NCBI GenBank assembly: GCA_934096705.1
Contig: CAKOMR010000002.1
Coordinates: 68,383-132,382 of the forward strand
Source: an uncultured Bacilli bacterium
Lineage (GTDB): Bacteria; Bacillota_I; Bacilli_A; RF39; UBA660
DNA: 64,000 nt
Direction of reading: 5' to 3'
The notes beneath the pieces are model-generated. The model was not told the DNA's origin. It searched no databases and worked only from the letters and a program-made list of their open reading frames with translations. Each line of letters starts with the position of its first letter. Positions within the stretch are counted from its first letter, which is position 1. Made by a program: the position numbers and the translations under genes. This document shows, piece by piece, positions 5,766 through 48,721 of the stretch.

Positions 5766-6851
5766 ATGGATAAACTTATCAAGAATATACTTAAGAAAAT
5801 AGAAAGTGAAGGATATGAAGCCTATGTAGTAGGTGGTTTTGTTCGTGACTCTTTACTTAAGAAAAATTCTTTTGATGTAGATATTTGTACTAATGCAAAA
5901 CCTAAAGACTTAGTAAATTTTTTAAGCATTAAACAAAGTACAAATAGTTATGGTGGTTTTAATATTAAAATTAAAAACTATAATATTGATATTACAACAT
6001 ATAGAAAAGAGAAAAAATATGATAAGCGTCATCCTGTGGAAATTGAATATGTAAATAATTTATTCGAAGATATAAAACGTAGAGATTTTACCATTAATTC
6101 TATTTGCATGGATAAAAATGATAAACTGATAGATTTATTAAATGGAAAAGAAGATATAAAAAATAAAATAGTACGTTCAATTGGATGCGCTAATGATAAA
6201 TTTTCAGAAGACCCATTAAGAATGCTTAGAGCAATTAGATTTGCCGCTATACTTGACTTTAAAATTGAAGAAAATACTTATGAAGCAATAAAAGAAAATG
6301 CTCAATTAGTTACAACTTTAAGTCCTATACGTATTAAAGAAGAGCTTACAAAAATATTAAGTAGTAAAAACTTTTTAAAAGGACTAAAGCTACTTGATGA
6401 TACTAAGATTAGTACATATATAGGACTTAAATACGATGATGTTGTATTTACTATGGATATACTTGGAATGTGGTCTCAAATCGATATTAATAAAGCAGAA
6501 TTTACAAAAGAAGAAAAAGAAAATATATCAAAAGTTAAAGAAATAATTATATCAAAAAAAATAAATAATTTTACATTGTTTAATTATGGACTATATTTAT
6601 CTTATGTTGCTGGTGAGGTTTTAAAAGTAAATAAACAGACTATTAACAAAATATATAAATCAATGCCAATAAAAAGTATGAAAGACATTGATATATCAGG
6701 TAAAGAAATAATGCAAATTTTAAATATTGAACCATGTAAGTTAATTAGTGAAATTATGAATGATTTAAAAATCAAAATATTAAAAAATGAATTAAAAAAT
6801 AAAAAAAATGAATTAAAAAAATACATTTTAGGGAAGTATAAAAATGAATAA
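5766..6851 (+). CDS. cca: CCA-adding enzyme / tRNA nucleotidyltransferase (PolyA polymerase family)
   Basis: VVGGFVRDSLL...DVDI nucleotidyltransferase motif, and RRDFTINS and EDPLRMLRAIRFA motifs. Confidence 0.85.
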   Translation: MDKLIKNILKKIESEGYEAYVVGGFVRDSLLKKNSFDVDICTNAKPKDLVNFLSIKQSTNSYGGFNIKIKNYNIDITTYRKEKKYDKRHPVEIEYVNNLFEDIKRRDFTINSICMDKNDKLIDLLNGKEDIKNKIVRSIGCANDKFSEDPLRMLRAIRFAAILDFKIEENTYEAIKENAQLVTTLSPIRIKEELTKILSSKNFLKGLKLLDDTKISTYIGLKYDDVVFTMDILGMWSQIDINKAEFTKEEKENISKVKEIIISKKINNFTLFNYGLYLSYVAGEVLKVNKQTINKIYKSMPIKSMKDIDISGKEIMQILNIEPCKLISEIMNDLKIKILKNELKNKKNELKKYILGKYKNE

Positions 6852-16128: not shown

Positions 16129-16527
16129 ATGAAAAAAGAAATTAATGTAGTAGCAGCTTTAATTATAAAGAATAATAAAGCTTTAATAGCTAAAAGATCA
16201 ACACATAAAGATGGTTTTAATCAATGGGAGTTTCCTGGGGGTAAGGTTGAAGAAAATGAAACCGACTATGAAGCTATTGAAAGGGAAATAAGAGAAGAAT
16301 TTAATGTTGAAGTTAAAGCAATTTCTTTTGTAACAAATAGTTTTTATAAATATCCACATAATGATGTAAATTTAAAACTATATGAATGTAAATATATTTC
16401 AGGCACATTTACACTTAATGTGCATAGTGCGTTTGCATGGGTAGATATTAAAGATCTATTAAATTATGACTTTGCTCCTGCGGATGAAATTTTAGCAAAG
16501 TATGTTGTTGATAAATATAATAAATAA
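16129..16527 (+). CDS. NUDIX hydrolase, MutT/NudG-like (d)NTP pyrophosphohydrolase
   Basis: Nudix box GGKVEENETDYEAIEREIREEFNV; about 130 aa. Confidence 0.82.
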   Translation: MKKEINVVAALIIKNNKALIAKRSTHKDGFNQWEFPGGKVEENETDYEAIEREIREEFNVEVKAISFVTNSFYKYPHNDVNLKLYECKYISGTFTLNVHSAFAWVDIKDLLNYDFAPADEILAKYVVDKYNK

Positions 16528-38326: not shown

Positions 38327-38403
38327 CATTTTTCTTGCATTTTATTAAAAAGTATTGTATATTATAAATGAACACGAAAAAGTGTTTTTTTATTGGAGGA
38401 AAA

Positions 38404-38652
38404 ATGGCAAAAGATAGTGAAAATACGAAAGAAATTAAACAAACAAAAAAAGTAACTAAAAAAAATAAACCAAAAGTAAAAAAAGAAAGTTATTTAAAAG
38501 GCGTAAAAAAGGAAATGAAACTTGTTAAATGGCCAACATTTAAAGAAGTTATTAAGTACACTATTGCTACAGTTGTAATGTGTCTTATTGTATGTGGTTT
38601 CTTTTTACTTTTAAATTTATTATTATCATTAATAAAAGGATGGTTGGTGTAG
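38404..38652 (+). CDS. secE: preprotein translocase subunit SecE
   Basis: Lys-rich N-terminus, then GVKKEMKLVKWPTFKEV plus a single TM. Immediately upstream of nusG. ATG behind GGAGG. Confidence 0.85.
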   Translation: MAKDSENTKEIKQTKKVTKKNKPKVKKESYLKGVKKEMKLVKWPTFKEVIKYTIATVVMCLIVCGFFLLLNLLLSLIKGWLV

Positions 38653-38656
38653 TATT

Positions 38657-39199
38657 ATGGAAGAAAATCAAAAATTATGGTATGTAGTTAATACATATTC
38701 TGGACATGAACTTTCAGTTAAAGAAAAACTTGAAATGCGTACAGAAAGCATGGGAATGCAGGATTATATTTTTAGAGTAATTATTCCTGAAACAACTGAA
38801 GTTGAAGTAAAAGATGGAGTAAAAAAAGAAAAAGTTAAAAAAATGTTCCCTGGATATGTTTTAGTCGAAATGATAATGACAGACGAAGCATGGTATATTG
38901 TTCGTAATACTCCGGGTGTTACTGGATTTATTGGTTCTAGTGGTAAAGGAGCTAAACCAACTCCATTATTACCTCAAGAAATTGATAGAATACTTGCATC
39001 AATGGGAATGAGCAGAGTAAATGTTGATGCTGAAATGAAAGTTGGAGACAATGTTAATATAATTGATGGACCATTTAAAGGAATGAATGGAAAAATTGAT
39101 AGTATAGATGCGGAAAATAATCGTTTAACTATAATTATTGACTTATTTGGTCAAGAAACATCTGTAGATGTTGAAAATTATCAAGTTAGTAAATACTAA
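38657..39199 (+). CDS. nusG: transcription termination/antitermination factor NusG
   Basis: WYVVNTYSGHE, PGYVLVEM, TPGVTGFIG and the KOW motif GDNVNIIDGPFKGMNGKI. Confidence 0.93.
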   Translation: MEENQKLWYVVNTYSGHELSVKEKLEMRTESMGMQDYIFRVIIPETTEVEVKDGVKKEKVKKMFPGYVLVEMIMTDEAWYIVRNTPGVTGFIGSSGKGAKPTPLLPQEIDRILASMGMSRVNVDAEMKVGDNVNIIDGPFKGMNGKIDSIDAENNRLTIIIDLFGQETSVDVENYQVSKY

Positions 39200-39229
39200 A
39201 AAATTAATCGTTTTTGATTAATTTTTTTT
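39198..39229. terminator. bidirectional intrinsic terminator between convergent nusG and the ABC permease
   Basis: A6-TTAATC-gttttt-GATTAA-T8. The hairpin overlaps the last codons of the minus-strand permease. Confidence 0.7.
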
Positions 39230-39998
39230 CTGTTAAGGAAACAATTAAATATAATAAATAGGAAAAAATAATTAATATAAATATTGATGACATTACTAGA
39301 TCCAAATCAAAAACTTGTGTGCCATACATTATTAGGTATCCAATACCTTTTTTACATGAAAGAAATTCTCCAGTTATAACTCCTATAAGTGTTAGTGAAA
39401 TGTTAAGCTTTAAACTTGAAATGATACTTTTATAACTTGATGGTACTACAAGCTTAGTTAGTATTTGCCATTTGCTAGCATTAAATGTTTTAAACATTTT
39501 AATTTTAATTTTGTCTATGTTAATGAATCCATTATAGATACTTAGCATACTAACAATTAAATTTATTAAAAGCGCCATTATAATTATACTTTTTGTATTA
39601 GCACCAAATATGATTATAATAATTGGTCCTAGTGCGACTTTAGGTAGTGCATTCAAAATTGTTAAAAATGGTTCAAATATTTTTGAAATAAATGGATATT
39701 CATAAAAAATAGTTGCTATAATAAATCCAATTAACGTACCTAACAAAAATGATATTATTACTTCATTTAGTGTAGTAAAAATGTGCGGAAATAAATTATT
39801 TTGAAGAATTAAACTTTTTATTGTTTTAAATATGTTAGATGGGCTAGAGTAAATAAATGAATTAATAATCTGTTTTTTTGTTAATATTTCCCAAAGAGAA
39901 AAAAATATAATAATAATAAATATTTGAATAAATCTTACTAAAAATTTTTCCTTTTTTTGTTTTCTTAAAAAAATCTTTTGTCTATCAGATTGATACAT
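39204..39998 (-). CDS. ABC transporter permease (BPD_transp_1; nitrate/sulfonate/bicarbonate NitT/TauT-like)
   Basis: Six TMs and the EAA-like loop FNASKWQILTKLVVPSSYKSIISSLKLNISLTLIGVITGEF. Start overlaps the ATPase 3' end. Confidence 0.8.
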   Translation of the reverse strand: MYQSDRQKIFLRKQKKEKFLVRFIQIFIIIIFFSLWEILTKKQIINSFIYSSPSNIFKTIKSLILQNNLFPHIFTTLNEVIISFLLGTLIGFIIATIFYEYPFISKIFEPFLTILNALPKVALGPIIIIIFGANTKSIIIMALLINLIVSMLSIYNGFINIDKIKIKMFKTFNASKWQILTKLVVPSSYKSIISSLKLNISLTLIGVITGEFLSCKKGIGYLIMYGTQVFDLDLVMSSIFILIIFSYLLYLIVSLTEKKLIKND

Positions 39999-40320
39999 CT
40001 AAATCCCTCCATATTAAATCATAATAATTTGAAAATTCTTTGCATTTTCTATTTTCTATTGGATTACTTTTACCTTTCATTTCTATATTATATATTTTTT
40101 TTACAACTGCAGGCCTTTTTGAAAATACTATAATTCTATCACTTAAACTAATTGCTTCAGCTATGTCATGAGTTATCATTATTACGGTTTTATTTTCTTT
40201 TTTTATGATATTAAAAACGTCATCCGAAACTTTTAACCTTGATTGATAATCAAGTGCTGAAAATGGTTCATCTAAAAGTAAAATATCTGGTTTTATAGCA
40301 AGTGTCCTAATAAGAGCAAC
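39985..40320 (-). pseudogene. ABC transporter ATP-binding protein, C-terminal fragment (Walker B to end) of a gene split by the insertion
   Basis: Reverse-strand frame reads VALIRTLAIKPDILLLDEPFSALD...VIMITHDIAEA... to stop. No start codon or Walker A. Continues exactly from the fragment at 48203-48631. Confidence 0.88.
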
Positions 40321-40342
40321 TGTTTGAATGTAGCAAAGACAC
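40315..40342. repeat. left junction (att): core AGCAACT + element arm TTGAATGTA-N5-GACAC
   Basis: The arm is the inverted repeat of GTGTC-N5-TACATTCAA at the right end, with identical spacing. Confidence 0.8.
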
Positions 40343-40365: not shown

Positions 40366-41952
40366 TTAAAAATTCCAAATAATTTTTATAATTCTCTTAT
40401 TATTTTCATCTAGTTTTCCAATGTAAATTTTGAGGATAAATTCATCAACAATGAACTTATTTAATTTTTTTATAACTTTATATTTTATAAATGAATTTTT
40501 ATTATCATTAATTGTAAATTTCTTATTTTTACAAAGATTAATTTTACTTTCAATAAATTTTATTTGATTTGTGTAAAAATTTTCATTATTAGTATAATTA
40601 ATAGTTAATTCTTTAAATTGTTCATTAGTAATTATTTTATTAATCTTATCTTCGTATAGTGATTTTAAATATTTTTTATTTTCTAATAATTTTTTTTTAT
40701 ATTCTATTTTTTGCTTTTCTAGTAAACTTAATTCATTTATCATTGTATTTTTGATATTATTAGTCACAATTTTAGATAAAATCTTTTCATCATAATAATT
40801 TTTTATTTTTTTATTGATTGCTCTTAATATAACATTTTCTAAATCATCATATCTAATAGATTTTTTATTTATACAATCATTGTATCCATTATTAACACTT
40901 GAGCAAACTAAATATTCATGTAATTTAGAATTCTTTTTTTTCATATATTTATTGCACTCTAAACAAAATACTTTACCAGAAAAATTATGCACAATTCCCG
41001 TATTTTTTCCAGCTTTTGTTCTTTCATTAATATACTTTTGTACTTTATCAAATGTTTTATTATCAATAATAGCTTCATGAGTATTTTCTCTTCTTATCCA
41101 ACTGTTTTTATTTTTTTTAATAATTTTATGATTTTTATAACTTATTGTAGTTCTTTTACCTTGCACTAAATTACCAATATATAATTCATTTGTCAGTATC
41201 GTTTTAATAGCATTTGCAGACCATTTTATTTCTTCTATAGGCCTATTACTTATTATGTTTAGTTTACTTCCTTTTTTATATTTATAAAATGAAGGAGATG
41301 GTATTTTTTTTTCATTTAAATATTTGGCTATTTCTGTAAAGCACATTCCTTTTAAATATAATCTAAAAATGTCTTTTACTATTTTAGCAGCCACAGGGTC
41401 TATTATTATTTTGTTATTATTTTCTTTTGAAATTTCATAACCAAAAGAAGTAAAAGGGGAAATAAATTCACCTTGTTTCATTTTTGTTTGAAAAGCACTT
41501 CTAATATTATTTGAGATATCTTCTAAGTACCATTCATTAACAAGGCCATTTATTTGCCTAGATTTTTTATTGCCTTGGATATTAGTATCTGCATTATCAA
41601 CTAAACCGATAAATCTAATATTCCATTCAATAAACTTATTGTGAATATATTTTTCAATTATTTCCATATCTCTAGAAAATCTGGATTGACTTTTACATAG
41701 GACTATATCAATTTTTCCATTTTCACAATCCTTAATTAATCTTTCAAATTCAGGTCTATAAGTACCGGCACCTGACAAATCTTCATCACAATATTCATCA
41801 ACAAGTTTAAATTTGGGATTTTTTCTAATTTCGTCTAAAAGTAAATTTCTTTGATTTTTAATGGACTCACTATCGTCAAGTTTATTTGTTTTGTCTTTAT
41901 CTTCATCAGATAATCTTAAATAAATAGCTACTTTTAAATAATCTTTATTCAT
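40366..41952 (-). CDS. large serine recombinase (resolvase catalytic domain + recombinase domain + zinc ribbon + coiled coil)
   Basis: VAIYLRLSDED...SIKNQR (catalytic Ser region), DIVLCKSQSRFSRD, FGYEI recombinase domain, CLECNKYM...LVCSS...C zinc ribbon, and a Lys/Asn-rich coiled C-terminus. 528 aa. Confidence 0.9.
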   Translation of the reverse strand: MNKDYLKVAIYLRLSDEDKDKTNKLDDSESIKNQRNLLLDEIRKNPKFKLVDEYCDEDLSGAGTYRPEFERLIKDCENGKIDIVLCKSQSRFSRDMEIIEKYIHNKFIEWNIRFIGLVDNADTNIQGNKKSRQINGLVNEWYLEDISNNIRSAFQTKMKQGEFISPFTSFGYEISKENNNKIIIDPVAAKIVKDIFRLYLKGMCFTEIAKYLNEKKIPSPSFYKYKKGSKLNIISNRPIEEIKWSANAIKTILTNELYIGNLVQGKRTTISYKNHKIIKKNKNSWIRRENTHEAIIDNKTFDKVQKYINERTKAGKNTGIVHNFSGKVFCLECNKYMKKKNSKLHEYLVCSSVNNGYNDCINKKSIRYDDLENVILRAINKKIKNYYDEKILSKIVTNNIKNTMINELSLLEKQKIEYKKKLLENKKYLKSLYEDKINKIITNEQFKELTINYTNNENFYTNQIKFIESKINLCKNKKFTINDNKNSFIKYKVIKKLNKFIVDEFILKIYIGKLDENNKRIIKIIWNF

Positions 41953-42050: not shown

Positions 42051-42218
42051 AACTTCTATAACGTTATATTTAGTATTTATAAAAATGCCTCCTTTTTTTA
42101 CAATAGTTGTTTTTTATTTATCAATATATTTTATTTATTTTATAGTAAAAAAATAATCTTTATGATATTATATATTTATAATAGTGCGGTTGCATTAATT
42201 TTTGGTGGTATGTGATTT

Positions 42219-45200
42219 ATGAATGAAAAAATGACTTTAGAACAATTTCAACAAATAAAAAATCAATTAATAAGTTTAGCAAATGAGGCTACATATGATG
42301 ATCCTGATATAGAGCAGAGGATAGTTGAACAATATTTAAAAATTCAAAATCAATTATTAGAATATGATTTAAGTGACATTCCATTTGAAGCATGGGATGG
42401 TGTGACAATAGTTTCAGATAAAGATCATGTAGTGGATTTTTCTAAAACAAAAGCTAATATAGATTTTGGCTTAATTTCATATTATGGATATGGCAATTTT
42501 AGGGATTGCAATATAAAAAATCTTAATTTACTTGGTAGTTATTTAAATCCTAGTGAATTTGATGAGAAAACAATTAGAGCTAATTCTACATTATTTTTAT
42601 CTAATATTTTTAATGAAGAATTTAAACGTAAATATTATAGTAGAACTTTAAATATTAGTGATTTGACATCATTAACTAGTCAGCAATTAGATGAATTAAT
42701 GCAAAAAAACATATTGATACATATAAATCAGCAAGAAAGAACTAGCGTTTTAATAGATACAATTGGTATTGATAAAGCTATAGAGTTTTATAAAAATTTT
42801 CCTAAAGAATATGAAAATGTTAATAAAATAGTACAATTACATAATGATTTTAGTGGTTTTATACGTGAAAGCAATAATATACCAACATTTGATGAATTTT
42901 TACAACAAATTAAAACTGCTGATATTTCAAAATTAAAGGATATATGTTTTTCTTATGCAAGAAGACAAATTATAAATTCTAATATAAAAATTATGAAAAA
43001 TGAATATCCAGAAGCATTTATTCAGGAAAATTCGGATATATTTTTAATTAATACCAATATTCCACAAGATGTAAAACAAAGATATTTTAATAGGTCTTTA
43101 TTAATTCAAGATCTTCTTGATTATCCTGATGTTTTTAGCAATATTTCTATAGATTATTTCATGGATTTTAGTAATAATATATCACAATTTTTTAGAGATA
43201 CTTTTGGTATCGGCACATTTCAAGAGTTGATAAAAAAGCACCCTGATGTATTTAACCATATTTTACAAGAAAATCATATTTATGAATTTAGTCATTTTTT
43301 GAAACCAGGAAAAGATGCAGATACTACATTTACAAATGCAGTTAAAGATTATTTTTTCAGTTATTGTAATCCTGAACAATTTTTTGCCTATGAAGATCAG
43401 ATGCCAAATGATAACTTAAAATGGTTATCATCTATGAAATTTAAATTTGTAAATAAATTAAAAACTAAAGAAGATTTGTTACAATGTGATAATTCAGTTT
43501 TAATTTTTGATTACAAACAAAGAAAAGTATTAGCTGGGCTTGGTATTGATAATGTAAAAAAATTTGAGCAAGACACAGGCTTTTTTACTCATAAAGAATT
43601 TGAGTGGTCAGAAGATTTAAACATGCTTAATTTTTGCTTTAGTTATTATGAAGAACTATATTCAATATTTAAAAATGGTAGTTTATCTTATGATGAATTT
43701 TTAAATAAATTTGCAGAATACTTGAATGAAGTTCGCAAACATAATGGTTTTTCTTTACATCAATCTTATGATTGGATTCAAGGTAAATTTAGAGAAAATC
43801 ATCCTGAAATATTTATGGATTCAAATCTGCCTAAAGAATTAAGAGAAGCATTTTATAAAAATAAACTTACTTCAACATTTATATATGAACATCAGGATTA
43901 TATAAAATATTTGGTAAATAGAGATTTATTAAGTACTATAAATGTTGATATGAAATTATTTGCTCCCGGAGAAACTGATGAAAATGGTTTTGTATTTCCT
44001 AGTTACAAAAATTTTGTAAAAGAATATATTTCAAGATATGGTAATGAAAAGTTTCTACAACTTTGTGTTAAATATGATGGTATTCTTTCAGATATTGAAG
44101 TAAATAATTCGAATGATGAAATTGAAGATGAACAAGCCATAGAGCAATCATTAAGAAATTCTATTTATGAAAAAATATTAGAAGGAGGCATAGATTATTC
44201 ATTTCTTAGTAGTAATCAAGACTTTATAATTGAACATCCAGAAATATTTATAAATCTCGATAGTCTATCTAATATACCTCAAACTGTTAAAAATGTAATT
44301 TTAAAAAATTTTTACAGCGGGAGTCTAAATTTTAATATTATAAAAATATACCCAGAGCTAGTAGATGTACTTAAAGACAAGAATTTATTTGTAGCATTTA
44401 ATCGTATTGATGGAAGACATTATAATGAAAGAATATATATAGGTCAAACTTATGAAGAAAAATATAGTGATTTAGAATTATTGCAAGTATTTGGTAATGA
44501 AAAGTTTTTACAATTGTGTGCTAAATATGGAAGATACATGGATGGTGTTGCACAACAATTTAGCAAAAATGTAACTATAAAAAATGGTAAATATATTGAT
44601 ATTAGGCAAGGTAATAAGAAATTAAATTTCGAGGATATTTCCAAGATAATTGAAGATATTATTATTCTTGAATGCAAAAAGGGTAATATTGAATATAGAC
44701 CAGATGATGTACCAGAATTTTTAAAAGAAAAGTCCCCGGAATTGTTTTTGGAAGAAAATGCTCCTGATGATTTAAAAAAACATTTTTATAATAGTAGTGC
44801 GGGTAGTTATCCTTTAACTTTTGAATTATTGCAAAAGAATAAAGATTGGTTGCCATTTTTAAAAGGAAAAGCCTTAGCTACTTCATTAATTAGGGGTGAA
44901 GAGTATAAATATCAATTAAGACAATATTTTGAATTGTTTGGTGAAGAAAAAGCTATTAAATTAGGAATTAGTAAGCCTGAAACAATTAAAGAAATGCTAG
45001 TGGATAATCAGATTGAACTAATGAAACGTTGGTATGATAAAACTGGTGGTAAGTTTATTCCTGACTATGTTGTAATGCAAAACTTTCCTTTAGAAGAAGC
45101 AGATAAATTTTTATCATCTGGTGCAAATTGGAGCAGTTTGATGAAAATTAAAAGTTTTTCTAAAAAAGCTGAATCAAGGGCAGCTATGTTAAAACTAGCT

Positions 45201-47141
45201 TATTCATTTGGAGCTTTTGATCAAGATCAAAGAGGCCTAAAAAAAGTACAAGATTTATTAACCGGTTTACCCAAAAAGATTGATGCTGATAATGGATTTA
45301 TTATAGATCAAATTGATTATCAAATAAATCTTTATAGTCAAAAAAATGTTTTCTATTATAATGAATCAAATAATAGTATTCTATTGCCTGAAGAAAAGGA
45401 AAAAGCATATCAACAAATGATTGAATATATAAAGAAACATGATTTTACTGATTTAATTGATACAGATACTTTACTTAATTTACTTGAATCATTAAGAAAA
45501 GAAAATGTTACAATTGATTTCTCTAAGCCAATATTTGCACAGCTTTATAATAAAAATGAAGATGGTTCATATTCTTTAACAATTAATCCTCAAAGTTGTC
45601 AAAAATCGGCTCAAATTATTAGGGGTATTTTAGAAAAATTTTGGACATTACCAATGTTGACACCTGATAAAGCACATCAATTATTTGGTGGATTTTCCTT
45701 AACTTATGATCCTGATTTTAGAGAGTTTTTACTTGCCAATTTAGATACAATTTTGCATGATTCACAACAATATACTGGTCTAGTTTCTAGTGTTCAAAGA
45801 CAATTTAAAGATATTAAAACAATAAATAGTAATAGATTTTTAACCTGGGATTTAGCAATAAGTTTTGTTCAAAAAAATAAATATGAATCAGTTAATGTAG
45901 GTAATGAACGAGTTGCTGAAGTATCCGCTATTGCTGGATATAGTCAAAATGATTTTAATGTATTACAACAAATTTATAATTATGGTAAACAAAGAACATT
46001 TAGTAGTATTCCAAGAATTGAAAATAAAGTAGAAAAAACAAGTGGCAAATATACTTATCAAATTTTAAGATTGGATGATCCTTATGCTATGGCAATTGGT
46101 ACTTTAACAGATTGTTGCCAGGAATTAAATAATTGTGCTGAAGTTTGTATGGAGCACAGCATGGTTGATAAAAATGGTCGTATATTTCTTATTAGGGATG
46201 AAAATGGTAAAGAAGTTGCACAAAGCTGGGTATGGAGAAACAAAGATGTGCTATGTTTTGATAATATAGAAATACCAAACAGGACCTTTGATAGAATTGA
46301 TAAAGAACATCCAGAATTGGGTAGGAAAGGGTTTACTGATGAAATTTTTGCAATATACAAACAAGCAGCACATGATTTAATAGAAGAAGATGAAAAAGTA
46401 TATAAAGAGCTATTAAAAAGTGGAAAAATTACGAAAGAACAATATGATGGTTTAAGATTAGGAAAAATAACTGTTGGATTGGGATACAATGATATAGCGG
46501 AATCATTAAAGCAAAACGCAGTAGTTGATGATGGAAACTTATCAAGACCATTACCATTTAAAGAACCCGTAAAATTAACACAACGACTATATACAAATGA
46601 CTCTACGACACAATATATTTTAGAAAAAAGAAATGATAGAAAAGAATTTAATGGGGAAACGCTTTCTGTGCATAGTGACACTTATACTGAGTATACTGAT
46701 ACAAATTTTACGCCACAATTTTTAGACTTTCTAATAAAATTGGAAGTTGTTACTAAAAATAATTCAAGAGATTTGGGCGTTTCTGCCAGTTATTATAAAG
46801 ATTCACAACATCTTGTTAGTGATATAGCAATAAGTTATGGATTGAATCCTAAAACAACAAAAATAATAATGAATCCCAATTTTGCAATTATTTATGATAT
46901 TAATGGTAATAAACTCAAAATTGGAGATTTATTATTTAACACTAGAGTAGATAATAAAGAACAACAAATGGATATTGAAAATAATGTTGTTATGCAAATA
47001 AGGTTAGCTTTAAATCAGATTTCAAATGGAAACGAAATAGATATATCCAATTTAGAGGAAAATCAAAAGATAATGTATGAAAAAGCTATAAGTCTAACTG
47101 ATGAACTAGATAATGAAAGAGGTGTTGGCCATGGAAGATAA
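42219..47141 (+). CDS. giant (1640 aa) repeat-containing protein of unknown function; main cargo of the element
   Basis: Uninterrupted 4.9-kb ORF with no signal peptide or TM seen. Internal repeats (HPEIF...P..L+..FY and GNEKFLQLC.KY) and a C-terminal Cys-rich block. No family recognised by eye. Confidence 0.8.
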   Translation: MNEKMTLEQFQQIKNQLISLANEATYDDPDIEQRIVEQYLKIQNQLLEYDLSDIPFEAWDGVTIVSDKDHVVDFSKTKANIDFGLISYYGYGNFRDCNIKNLNLLGSYLNPSEFDEKTIRANSTLFLSNIFNEEFKRKYYSRTLNISDLTSLTSQQLDELMQKNILIHINQQERTSVLIDTIGIDKAIEFYKNFPKEYENVNKIVQLHNDFSGFIRESNNIPTFDEFLQQIKTADISKLKDICFSYARRQIINSNIKIMKNEYPEAFIQENSDIFLINTNIPQDVKQRYFNRSLLIQDLLDYPDVFSNISIDYFMDFSNNISQFFRDTFGIGTFQELIKKHPDVFNHILQENHIYEFSHFLKPGKDADTTFTNAVKDYFFSYCNPEQFFAYEDQMPNDNLKWLSSMKFKFVNKLKTKEDLLQCDNSVLIFDYKQRKVLAGLGIDNVKKFEQDTGFFTHKEFEWSEDLNMLNFCFSYYEELYSIFKNGSLSYDEFLNKFAEYLNEVRKHNGFSLHQSYDWIQGKFRENHPEIFMDSNLPKELREAFYKNKLTSTFIYEHQDYIKYLVNRDLLSTINVDMKLFAPGETDENGFVFPSYKNFVKEYISRYGNEKFLQLCVKYDGILSDIEVNNSNDEIEDEQAIEQSLRNSIYEKILEGGIDYSFLSSNQDFIIEHPEIFINLDSLSNIPQTVKNVILKNFYSGSLNFNIIKIYPELVDVLKDKNLFVAFNRIDGRHYNERIYIGQTYEEKYSDLELLQVFGNEKFLQLCAKYGRYMDGVAQQFSKNVTIKNGKYIDIRQGNKKLNFEDISKIIEDIIILECKKGNIEYRPDDVPEFLKEKSPELFLEENAPDDLKKHFYNSSAGSYPLTFELLQKNKDWLPFLKGKALATSLIRGEEYKYQLRQYFELFGEEKAIKLGISKPETIKEMLVDNQIELMKRWYDKTGGKFIPDYVVMQNFPLEEADKFLSSGANWSSLMKIKSFSKKAESRAAMLKLAYSFGAFDQDQRGLKKVQDLLTGLPKKIDADNGFIIDQIDYQINLYSQKNVFYYNESNNSILLPEEKEKAYQQMIEYIKKHDFTDLIDTDTLLNLLESLRKENVTIDFSKPIFAQLYNKNEDGSYSLTINPQSCQKSAQIIRGILEKFWTLPMLTPDKAHQLFGGFSLTYDPDFREFLLANLDTILHDSQQYTGLVSSVQRQFKDIKTINSNRFLTWDLAISFVQKNKYESVNVGNERVAEVSAIAGYSQNDFNVLQQIYNYGKQRTFSSIPRIENKVEKTSGKYTYQILRLDDPYAMAIGTLTDCCQELNNCAEVCMEHSMVDKNGRIFLIRDENGKEVAQSWVWRNKDVLCFDNIEIPNRTFDRIDKEHPELGRKGFTDEIFAIYKQAAHDLIEEDEKVYKELLKSGKITKEQYDGLRLGKITVGLGYNDIAESLKQNAVVDDGNLSRPLPFKEPVKLTQRLYTNDSTTQYILEKRNDRKEFNGETLSVHSDTYTEYTDTNFTPQFLDFLIKLEVVTKNNSRDLGVSASYYKDSQHLVSDIAISYGLNPKTTKIIMNPNFAIIYDINGNKLKIGDLLFNTRVDNKEQQMDIENNVVMQIRLALNQISNGNEIDISNLEENQKIMYEKAISLTDELDNERGVGHGR

Positions 47142-48138
47142 AGATATTAGCAAAATAATAACAAATGCTTTACAAGTTAATAAAGATAAATTAAGTGAAA
47201 ATATAAAGTCAATAATTATGCAAATGAAAAAAGCTTTTGAAAGCAATAAGAAAATTATTGAACAGGCAAATTCTATTGATCAAAAAAATAATAATGGCTT
47301 TATTTTAGACTTTAATGTTATTGATAATATATTTACTGATTTAAAAGAAGAAAATATATTTTATGGTGATGTTATTCTTTCTCAAAAAGATGAAAATAAA
47401 AATATTATATATGGAACTCAAATAATGGATTATGGAAATGTAATTGTTATTACTGATGGTAATCCATATATTACTATTGAAATGGCCATTAGAAATATAA
47501 TGGCTGGTAATACAACAATTTTTGTAAACGAAGGTTTTATGTTTGGCACTAATCAATTATTAATTCAAATAATACAAAGTGTTTTAGAAATATTCAGTTT
47601 GTCTAAAAATTTAATTCAAATGTATGTATCTGAAAGTTTTGACGAGGTATTAGCAAATTTTTCTAATATCGATTTAGTAGTTTGCATAGGTAATCATAAT
47701 TTACAAAATCTAGTTTTAAATAAATCAAAAAACAAAACTATTGTTAGTGGGTATGAAAACTTTGACTTGTATATTGAGGATGCAACTCATATAGACTTTC
47801 TTAATAAAATGCTTGATACTGGACTAAATATTCAAGTATATATAAATAGTGATATTAATTTAGATTATCCTAATGCTATAATAGTTAGTGATATCGAAGA
47901 AGCAATTGCTCAAATTAATTACAATGGAAGTAGGTATAGTTCTGCTATATTTACTGCTGAAACAAAAAATGCTTCTAAATTTATTAAAGAAGTAAAATCA
48001 AAAATAGTAACAGTTAATACTAGTCCCACTATAGAAAGAATATTAGATATAAAACAAACGGACTTAATAAATAAAAAAACTATAATATATCCATTCAGCT
48101 TTAAATTAGATGGTAATAATGAAAAAATACAATTATAG
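47131..48138 (+). CDS. ProA (gamma-glutamyl-phosphate reductase)/ALDH-fold-like protein, apparently catalytically degenerate
   Basis: Collinear resemblance to ProA: GNVIVITDGNPYITIEMAIRNIMAGNTTIF vs G..Y.ARPNVT.D...L.LK.GNA.ILRGG; IDLVVCIGN vs IDL.IPRGG; YNGSRYSSAIFT...VTVNTSP vs HGS.HS.AI.T...VYVNASTRF. About 335 aa with a single Cys. ATG at 47131 overlaps the giant ORF's stop. Confidence 0.6.
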   Translation: MEDKDISKIITNALQVNKDKLSENIKSIIMQMKKAFESNKKIIEQANSIDQKNNNGFILDFNVIDNIFTDLKEENIFYGDVILSQKDENKNIIYGTQIMDYGNVIVITDGNPYITIEMAIRNIMAGNTTIFVNEGFMFGTNQLLIQIIQSVLEIFSLSKNLIQMYVSESFDEVLANFSNIDLVVCIGNHNLQNLVLNKSKNKTIVSGYENFDLYIEDATHIDFLNKMLDTGLNIQVYINSDINLDYPNAIIVSDIEEAIAQINYNGSRYSSAIFTAETKNASKFIKEVKSKIVTVNTSPTIERILDIKQTDLINKKTIIYPFSFKLDGNNEKIQL

Positions 48139-48175
48139 AAAAATCTAATAAGTAATATGCTTATTAGATTTTTTA
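48139..48175 (+). terminator. intrinsic terminator closing the cargo operon, inside the element
   Basis: AAATCTAATAAG-taatatg-CTTATTAGATTT followed by a T-run. Confidence 0.85.
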
Positions 48176-48187
48176 TTGTTATAATTG

Positions 48188-48212
48188 GTGTCCACATTAC
48201 ATTCAAGCAACT
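48188..48212. repeat. right junction (att): element arm GTGTC-N5-TACATTCAA + core AGCAACT
   Basis: See the left junction. Joining the two ends gives GTGTC-N5-TACATTCAA-N8-TTGAATGTA-N5-GACAC. Confidence 0.8.
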
Positions 48213-48622
48213 CTTTGTTTCATGCCACCAGATAAAGATGCCGGATATTTATCCATAAAATCTTTTAATCCGTACGTAGTTAGTAAATTTTTTACATATT
48301 CAACATTTTCCTTTGTATCTATTTTTTTAATTTTTAAGCCTAAAATTGCATTTTCAAATATATTTAAATAGGGAAGAAGAGCATCCTCTTGAAGCATATA
48401 TCCTATAATTGGTTTTTCTTTAGAAAAAATCATTTTTCCATTATAATTTTCAAGTCCTGCAATAATGTTTAATAAGGTTGATTTACCACAACCAGATGAA
48501 CCGACAATTGCAATAAATTCATTTTCAAACACATCAAAAGAGATATCATCTATAGCATTTACTTCACCCTTGGGTGTATTAAAAATTTTGTTAATATTTT
48601 GTAAACTTAAAAGTGGTTTCAT
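48203..48622 (-). pseudogene. ABC transporter ATP-binding protein, N-terminal fragment (Walker A to signature motif), truncated by the insertion
   Basis: LSLQNINKIF...GSSGCGKSTLLN (Walker A)...[10 protein letters not shown], then TGA contributed by element sequence. ATG at 48622 behind AGGTGA (track start 48631). Confidence 0.88.
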
Positions 48623-48721
48623 TTTCATCACCTATGATATTTTATTCAACTAATAAATTATGAACTATTGAAATAGTTTAGAAGTATATTTAAAAAATTT
48701 AATAATTATGTTATATTTATA

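Follow-up and report, generated by a model that had tools for sequence, protein, structure and literature searches.

An undescribed two-gene mobile cargo module from uncultured Bacilli: a giant protein with a predicted GNAT-like domain and a degenerate ProA-like partner

We analyzed a 64,000-nucleotide stretch of DNA, hereafter the window, from an uncultured Bacilli bacterium (contig CAKOMR010000002.1 of GenBank assembly GCA_934096705.1). In this window, an open reading frame (ORF) for a 1,640-aa protein, the giant ORF, is followed by a gene whose product resembles gamma-glutamyl-phosphate reductase (ProA), and we conclude that the two genes form an undescribed two-gene mobile cargo module. 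In the libraries and literature searched, the sequence family, the putative catalytic center without a coenzyme A (CoA) motif, the architecture, and the pseudo-ProA partner with its cassette were not described; the fold of the catalytic-looking domain, judging from the structure model, is an already known one, GNAT-like. The reading that we favor, at somewhat less than an even chance, is that this two-gene cargo of small integrative elements encodes a target-directed group transferase that acts in genetic conflict or element maintenance.

The giant gene and its ProA-like partner

Among 5.8 billion proteins searched, 72 were homologous to the giant ORF product; the majority had full length (about 1,500-1,700 aa), and all lacked annotation. 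Across about 185,000 species genomes (one genome per species), homologous reading frames are kept in at least 66 species-level loci, and about 50 of these span the entire C-terminal half. Because of these homologues and the reading frames kept across species, we consider the giant ORF to be a real gene, and its position, strand, and length (42219..47141, plus strand, 1,640 aa) were exactly as described in the original prediction. Nearly all hosts are gut metagenome-assembled genomes labeled uncultured Bacilli, "Tenericutes"/Mycoplasmatota, or Clostridia (for example, Clostridium sp. CAG:914 and CAG:710, and Mycoplasma sp. CAG:877 and CAG:956). The window itself has a very low G+C content (about 25%).

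Two side observations concern the reading frame. An antisense ORF of 199 aa with a GTG start (46082-46681, minus strand) lies inside the best-conserved part of the giant gene; it is most likely spurious, since its Ser/Leu/Phe-rich composition is expected opposite an A+T-rich coding strand. Further, the giant gene of a near-identical strain (locus L087, 2872-7780) was called as two ORFs of 1,342 and 307 aa, which reflects either an assembly error or a natural frameshifted allele.

As judged by the searches made here, the giant protein appears to belong to no described family. Pfam, NCBIfam, PHROGs, and PADLOC yielded zero matches for the giant protein, for nine diverse relatives, and for the isolated core domain; sequence comparison with the PDB, whether by single sequences or by two family profiles, likewise gave zero matches for the giant protein, and the core module had no match in a plasmid collection. 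The segments of the protein did not all fall into families with a housekeeping role. A motif scan detected no Walker A, HExxH, methylase, or nuclease strings. The maximum Kyte-Doolittle score was 0.70 (19-residue window), with no transmembrane segment, and nothing resembling a signal peptide was seen at the N terminus. The lack of a recognizable family, of these motifs, and of a signal peptide or transmembrane segment had been noted beforehand from the letters of the DNA and was confirmed. The giant protein is cytoplasmic and modular.

Of the 53 loci compared, 46 have the ProA-like gene downstream of the giant gene; the exceptions are mostly contig ends, and one locus (L049) has the reversed order. 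While the mechanical ORF starts at 47113, the true start is most likely 47131, which would let the gene overlap the end of the giant ORF by 11 nt. An 11-nt overlap was also returned by gene callers in five loci, the ribosome-binding site of the partner (AGAGGTG) lies within the last codons of the giant ORF, and the overlap sequence (...GAAAGAGGTGTTGG(T/C)CATG...) is kept at the nucleotide level in at least 25 loci. This conserved overlap points to translational coupling of the two genes, so that the tight link to a ProA-like gene noted in the original prediction was confirmed. An AT-rich hairpin can be recognized by eye after the stop codon of the ProA-like gene (about 48143-48180, AATCTAATAAG-N7-CTTATTAGATT plus a T-run); it falls short of the G+C-pair requirement of our consensus terminator scan, which found no terminator.

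The partner is best read as a catalytically dead pseudo-enzyme with an ALDH fold. Against the NCBIfam equivalogs, it scored 67.6 bits for NF001221 (cut-off 289) and 61.8 bits for TIGR00407 (cut-off 317). It aligns with the ProA structures 8zok and 1o20 in two blocks (residues ~39-229 and 242-305), and between these blocks about 70 ProA residues (~238 to ~307) are reduced to about 12. The ALDH superfamily requires a catalytic Cys, and no conserved Cys was present anywhere among 39 members of the ProA-like family. Because the segment of the catalytic Cys has collapsed and no Cys is conserved, the partner would not be a working gamma-glutamyl-phosphate reductase, although one source annotates a family member under this name. 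For this family, 871 members could be detected, and most share 76-79% identity with the window copy.

Predicted domains of the giant protein

AlphaFold2 models were built on family alignments in two pieces, aa 1-920 and aa 920-1640. Their confidence was high in both cases by the predicted local distance difference test (pLDDT 88.5 and 86.7, respectively), and the following parts were distinguished:

42219..44978, plus strand: N-terminal array, aa 1-920 (model with pLDDT 88.5), shared with a paralogue termed 'type B'
44976..45980, plus strand: conserved helical region before the core, aa 920-1254, belonging to the module that stands alone in phages
45981..46553, plus strand: core domain with predicted GNAT topology, aa 1255-1445 (model, DSSP, and alignment)
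46611..47093, plus strand: putative second alpha/beta domain, aa ~1465-1625 (from the DSSP order)

The core of the C-terminal module appears GNAT-like in fold, with a noncanonical, possibly thiol-dependent center. In the model, aa 1276-1433 run in the order b1-a1-a2-b2-b3-b4-a3-b5-a4 (DSSP), which is the GNAT order. A fold search of the PDB gave 50 listed matches, all 50 with a GNAT fold, including VipF (E = 0.018), NatD (probability 0.94), FemX, SpeG, and Gcn5. In BFVD, phage acetyltransferases were matched with probabilities of 0.96-1.0 and E-values of about 5e-3 to 2e-2, and the best matches were true homologues, namely the phage protein A0A7G9A3X2 and Orf137 of Lactobacillus phage LP65 (E = 1.5e-9 and 6e-4).

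Conservation among 47 full-length relatives is highest at aa 1280-1351, and the core carries the motif DDP..IG.LTDCCQ...E.C.EHS...GRIF.I.D..G..VAQSWVWRN..VLCFDNIE. In an alignment of the 20 most diverse cores (alignment A3), only P1265, C1300 (the second Cys of the CC pair), D1348, and E1351 are invariant, and H1313, G1320, S1336, W1337, W1339, and C1346 are conserved in at least 90% of the sequences. Placed on the GNAT topology, C1300 falls in the a1-a2 loop, H1313 on a2, and D1348 and E1351 where b4 ends. In the GNAT fold, the a1-a2 region and the terminal part of b4 are the locations of acceptor binding and of the general base. C1300, H1313, D1348, and E1351 would therefore cluster where GNATs build their active site. 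A second, degenerate GNAT-like lobe is probable at aa ~1465-1625, because the secondary-structure order fits and alignments of more than 300 columns link the C-terminal module to the tandem-GNAT proteins VipF and FemX. The original prediction had drawn an analogy to giant 'polyvalent' proteins; taken to mean several enzymatic domains, this did not hold, as the GNAT-like C-terminal module is the only catalytic-looking one that we see.

The C-terminal module marks a large family that carries no annotation at the sequence level. An exhaustive HMMER search (E<=1e-3) assigned 1,394 representative clusters at 50% identity to its family. Distant members of 630-1,400 aa have unrelated N termini, one of which bears BspA-type leucine-rich repeats. 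Standalone module proteins of 530-700 aa, all annotated as hypothetical, occur in large phages of unrelated hosts (Microcystis and Lactobacillus) and share the pattern CCQ...AQSW.W.N...CFDN.E; gp083 of the Microcystis cyanophage MaMV-DH01 (L073, 1346-3433) has the core motif.

In the model, the N-terminal 920 residues start with a pair of helices, after which come a small beta unit (aa ~60-100) and an extended array that is mainly helical. Its building blocks are about six degenerate helical repeats of ~150 aa with the signature hP(E/D)hF...(N/D)hP..hK..FY, which were recognized by motif recurrence and out-of-register matches to homologues; internal repeats were undetected by self-BLAST. Foldseek returned no structural neighbor for aa 1-920, the best matches being alpha-solenoids (CAND1 and importin-beta) at noise level (E = 1.0). 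At the 25 fully covered loci, the ProA-like partner had a median identity of 66% to the window copy, compared to 59% for the C-terminal module and 40% for the N-terminal array, and the N terminus was less conserved than the C terminus at every one of them. The N-terminal array is thus the fastest-evolving part of the giant protein.

Genes of the window's family ('type A') also occur in tandem, with two to four copies per genome and members that are 48-53% identical:

L082, 10001-24752: tandem type-A array directly after recA
L025, 3093-12779: tandem type-A array
L029, 7073-15625: tandem type-A array

No ProA-like gene lies between the giants in the arrays of three to four, and the contigs or loci end before the far side of the arrays.

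These patterns bear on a doubtful alternative, namely that the genes are a toxin/antidote pair in which a toxic C-terminal modifying enzyme is neutralized by the co-translated ProA-like protein, stabilizing the element. GNAT-fold toxins do occur in toxin-antitoxin systems, and such a pair would account for the strict translational coupling of the downstream partner, for the similar conservation of C-terminal module and partner (as for an interacting pair), and for their being the sole cargo of a minimal element; a catalytically dead partner also fits a binding role. However, the giant protein, with its 1,640 aa and an N-terminal array of 900 aa, does not resemble the toxins known from toxin-antitoxin systems, it carries no secretion, LXG, Rhs, or other trafficking domain, and its variable N terminus and conserved C terminus are the reverse of polymorphic toxins. 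Arrays of three to four giants with no ProA-like gene between them, on contigs that end at the array end, argue in the same direction.

The element in the window and related loci

In the window, the pair is carried by an element of 7,891 bp with three genes only, a serine recombinase gene, the giant ORF, and the ProA-like ORF. Junction mapping agrees with the earlier estimate that the giant ORF fills 62% of the element. The features are:

39985..40320, minus strand: C-terminal half of an ABC ATPase, resuming at ...VA LIRTLAIKPDILLLDEPFSALD
40315..40342: left junction, with the 6-bp core at 40315-40320 and the terminal inverted-repeat arm GTGTC....TACATTCA
40366..41952, minus strand: large serine recombinase of 528 aa (Resolvase, Recombinase, and Zn_ribbon_recom domains)
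42100..42218, plus strand: promoter and leader of the pair, a diverged copy of a cross-species motif
42219..47141, plus strand: giant ORF of the type A family, 1,640 aa, an uninterrupted reading frame with homologues
47131..48138, plus strand: ProA-like partner, 335 aa, a putative ALDH/ProA fold remnant
48181..48211: right junction, with the terminal inverted-repeat arm TGAATGTA....GACAC and the 6-bp core at 48206-48211
48203..48631, minus strand: N-terminal half of the ABC ATPase, ending ...LSGGMKQRVA before a stop supplied by the element

The insertion point lies in an ssuB-like ATPase gene, directly behind the codons for the ABC signature, and the ATPase is truncated by the element. The hexamer GTTGCT is duplicated, with one copy at each junction and imperfect inverted repeats just inside. 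The remainder of the ATPase gene restarts at 40320 (VALIRTLAIKPDILLLDEPFSALD...) and overlaps a permease gene (39204..39998). Rejoining the two halves in silico gave a 248-aa protein that is exactly collinear with the intact orthologue of L026. The recombinase was recognized by its Resolvase, Recombinase, and zinc-ribbon domains (Pfam E-values 9e-20, 4e-25, and 3e-10, respectively) and is most similar to XisF and CcrB/C among NCBIfam families.

In a second species (L001-L003), the same three genes with similar terminal repeats are located at the homologous ATPase codon, just after LSGGxxQRV (L001 junction regions at about 5950-6080 and 16430-16470). Compared to the window, the giant protein of this species is 58% identical and its ATPase only 50% identical. 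Because the same codon was hit in two species, recombinases of this lineage seem to have the conserved sequence just past the ABC signature codons as their target. As a side observation, the element lies one operon away from secE-nusG (38368-39199), in a housekeeping stretch, and in a distant-relative locus (L072), about 5 kb separate nusG from the core-domain gene; the proximity to nusG in both is probably a coincidence.

Mobile carriage recurs at other loci in varied forms. Serine recombinases of differing lineages (24-74% identity) are encoded within a few kb of the pair in 7 loci, and none is encoded within 10 kb in 46 of the 53. Of the originally predicted carriage by a site-specific recombinase, mobility therefore held up across loci through recombinases, a relaxase, insertion sequences (IS), and repeats, and the recombinase as a constant companion did not. 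Strain-variable DNA with IS3-type and recombinase genes lies downstream of the pair in L090-L092. Two neighbor clusters recur, a Mob_Pre (MobV-type) relaxase and a small protein without a Pfam match that stands beside serine recombinases or direct repeats; the latter may be an accessory factor of the element, e.g., a directionality factor. Members of these clusters are located at:

L008, 7010-8338 and 10860-11135
L011, 83-409
L031, 7436-7810
L036, 12770-13552
L051, 17727-18041

At least eight loci have imperfect direct repeats (30-185 bp, spaced 5.3-7.5 kb apart) on both sides of the pair:

L007, 6976-7129 and 13402-13556: direct repeats
L011, 426-470 and 6748-6792: direct repeats, the downstream one abutting the 3' end of a tRNA-Gly gene
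L048, 7944-8128 and 13247-13431: direct repeats, the downstream one an orphan duplicate of the upstream one, which is the genuine 3' end of a DUF6320 gene
L022, L031, L036, L042, and L053: further loci with direct repeats

No integrase is encoded between the repeats of these loci. In six loci, tRNA genes (Gly, His, or Cys) lie shortly downstream of the pair. Taken together with the recombinase, relaxase, and IS links, we read the bracketing repeats as footprints of site-specific integration. The moving unit is essentially the promoter, the giant gene, and the partner.

The promoter travels as a recognizable leader. Over ~100 nt upstream of the giant gene, nucleotide identity between species is 75-92%, above that of the downstream coding sequence. 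The leader motif comprises an extended -10 element (TG.TATAAT), then GATA(A/G)TAG, and then a ribosome-binding region (GG(A)TGGTG), with the extended -10 TGTTATAAT, the start region GATAGTAG, and the ribosome-binding region AGGATGGTG. Equivalents are found at:

L001, 9900-10000
L007, 7140-7246
L008, L011, L013, L021, L036, and L051

A structured leader RNA with a candidate hairpin, as in a riboswitch-type element, was considered and rejected, with RNAalifold giving -0.5 kcal/mol and many broken pairs and Rfam giving no match.

The integrase-free copies could also be explained if the giant protein were itself the mobility or replication machinery of the cassette, and it fits this idea that the direct-repeat cassettes contain only the pair and that promoter and pair travel together. 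We consider it very improbable. The protein shows no nuclease, recombinase, transposase, primase, helicase, or DNA-binding motifs or folds, the window element has its own complete serine recombinase, and repeats of 30-185 bp that duplicate the ends of target genes are typical of site-specific integration followed by loss of the integrase.

Besides the ProA-like partner, no conserved neighbor was found among the compared loci, and flanking synteny is not shared between species. The type B paralogue shares the N-terminal ~860 aa of the giant protein and has a different, highly conserved C-terminal part of ~800 aa without a family match. It has neither the core motif nor a ProA-like neighbor and is located in core chromosomal contexts (uvrC/mutL or xerD/deoB). 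Type B genes (proteins P0052-P0072) include:

L004, 10001-14977
L005, 10001-14272

Possible function of the pair and comparison with known systems

Under the transferase reading, the C-terminal module would be a group, probably acyl, transferase, possibly acting via an intermediate bound to Cys1300. The N-terminal array would select the target or sense a trigger, and the dead ProA-like subunit would bind a ligand or nucleotide and, without catalysis of its own, regulate the C-terminal module or act as its adaptor, with module and partner co-evolving at similar, slower rates. We prefer a role in conflict or element maintenance over one in core metabolism because the pair is the sole cargo of the element, the giant genes have expanded in tandem, the putative recognition part evolves fastest, and the putative catalytic module occurs on its own in phages.

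Several results weigh against this reading. For the transferase part, the best match to a solved GNAT fold had E = 0.018, with none at or below 1e-3, and target-normalized TM-scores reached at most 0.47 (the query being a 721-residue multidomain model). GNAT sequence profiles such as Pfam Acetyltransf_1 gave no match at E<=1 with the whole protein or the core alone. The Q/RxxGxG/A motif that binds the CoA pyrophosphate between b4 and a3 is absent from the window core and unconserved in alignment A3, and the clustering of the four conserved residues was deduced from topology only. Given the weak fold E-values, the lack of a GNAT Pfam match, and the missing CoA motif, the use of acyl-CoA is unproven. 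For the conflict part, the 149 genes located up to three positions away from the pair belong to 128 Pfam families, mostly housekeeping, with no defense-island signature and only generic PADLOC hits, and several loci adjoin recA or argS. PADLOC v2 had zero matches for the giant or the ProA-like protein. The defense or anti-defense role raised in the original prediction consequently remains the analogy as which it was offered. For mobility, the element was present in all 15 public contigs that encode an identical permease (one of them with a frameshifted giant gene), and strings for the empty site attB (AAACAAAGAGTTGCTCTTATTAGGACA) and the circular attP (CTACATTCAAACAGTTGCTTGAATGTAATGTGG) were found in no JGI metagenome contig, a collection that may lack the species. 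Relatives of the giant family were also absent from IMG/VR viral contigs.

The missing CoA-binding motif and the weak GNAT matches would suit a thiol hydrolase (protease, deamidase, or amidase) with a Cys1300-His1313-Asp/Glu triad, in which the likeness to GNAT would reflect a shared alpha/beta sandwich; Cys, His, and two acids are indeed the only universal polar residues. Nevertheless, the secondary-structure order is exactly that of GNAT, and the top fold hits in two libraries are all GNAT, with no papain-, transglutaminase-, or NlpC/P60-type protein among them. In addition, the His lies in a helix, whereas papain-like folds have it on a beta-strand after the Cys helix. We therefore regard a hydrolase as quite unlikely.

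The main rival is a lineage-specific housekeeping enzyme complex that modifies a host protein, RNA, or metabolite and whose capture by recombinase elements is incidental; we judge it improbable, but more probable than any other alternative. Many loci lie among recA, argS, cysS, and ffh without mobile genes within 10 kb, the giant family is retained, sometimes in multiple copies, in reduced genomes, the type B paralogue resides in core contexts (uvrC/mutL or xerD/deoB), promoter and leader are conserved, and the element is fixed in the species of the window. This is countered by flanks without synteny between species, by the sparse distribution of the giant family (at least 66 of about 185,000 species genomes), and by the direct repeats around the pair in at least eight loci together with the repeated recombinase, relaxase, and IS links. 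Moreover, the 7.9-kb element of the window, which inactivates a host gene, carries no cargo besides the pair, and versions of the putative catalytic module are carried by phages.

The preferred reading of a target-directed group transferase also has a more far-reaching form, which we hold to be unlikely, ranking it below the housekeeping complex and above the toxin/antidote pair and the hydrolase. It describes a mobile-borne conflict system in which the array would recognize an invader or competitor and unleash a Cys-dependent transferase without a CoA motif that modifies a macromolecule, gated by the dead ProA-like subunit. Phages would use the bare module for counter-attack or host takeover, and the core would represent a new enzymatic branch of the GNAT fold with more than 1,000 clusters.

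A Cys/His/Asp/Glu center on a GNAT-like scaffold without a CoA motif suggests unexplored chemistry in a much-used fold, and the pairing with a degenerate ProA would be an example of a metabolic enzyme recruited as a noncatalytic subunit. With a promoter, two genes, and in some cases one recombinase, the compact, self-contained cassette is easily cloned and tested. Its source, uncultured gut Bacillota with small genomes, has an accessory biology that is almost unknown.

Among known systems, the GNAT superfamily (Legionella VipF, Weissella FemX) resembles the giant core in strand order, the fit of two lobes, and the placement of conserved residues. Two residues that do not characterize GNATs, an invariant Cys within a CC pair and an almost invariant His, set the core apart; it lacks the CoA motif and any sequence or profile match to a GNAT family, and it forms part of a 1,640-aa protein in which a helical array of 900 aa precedes it.

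PcfJ-like proteins (PF14284) of Gram-positive conjugative plasmids and phages are likewise uncharacterized and mobile-borne and have beta-strands after an 'xC' motif whose Cys is conserved, and two BFVD entries named PcfJ-like were among the fold hits of the core (E = 4e-3 and 1e-2). Membership in this family was tested and rejected. PF14284 detected PcfJ of pCF10 at 1e-43 and no tested member of the giant family, BLASTP and profile-versus-sequence searches against pCF10 PcfJ and six plasmid homologues were negative, and hhalign of a 96-sequence core profile with a 7-member PcfJ profile gave 8% probability, out of register. PcfJ also differs in its neighborhood: it adjoins a gene of the PcfK/AcrIIA9 family in 5 of 7 plasmid loci (not in Alicyclobacillus and C. 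sporogenes), and no such neighbor was present in the window or in related giant-gene loci. As a separate observation, a PcfJ-domain gene adjoins, and often overlaps, a gene of the Cas9 inhibitor family AcrIIA9 or a PcfK-like gene in plasmids of Enterococcus, Carnobacterium, Listeria, and Bacteroides, which suggests a conserved two-gene unit of plasmid anti-defense regions. The literature searched yielded nothing relevant on PcfJ, on ProA with defense, or on PcfK/AcrIIA9. The loci are:

L074, 15874-17984: PcfJ with AcrIIA9/PcfK-like genes
L075, L076, L077, and L080: further loci of this kind

The partner can be aligned with ProA in the part that binds the cofactor and in the region of the C-terminal signature, and differs in its length (335 aa compared to about 415) and in having no proB/proC context. 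In comparison to polymorphic toxin/immunity systems, the giant protein has no N-terminal trafficking domain, its N terminus is the more variable part, and the partner is a 335-aa protein with a predicted ALDH fold. Finally, the element resembles SCCmec with its Ccr recombinases, the fdxN element with XisF, and the gene-interrupting elements of spore formers in its three-domain recombinase, its precise, rejoinable split of a gene, its short core repeat, and its imperfect inverted repeats at the termini. Compared to these serine-recombinase elements, it is minimal, consisting of the recombinase and one two-gene cargo, and its target is the sequence that follows LSGGQ.

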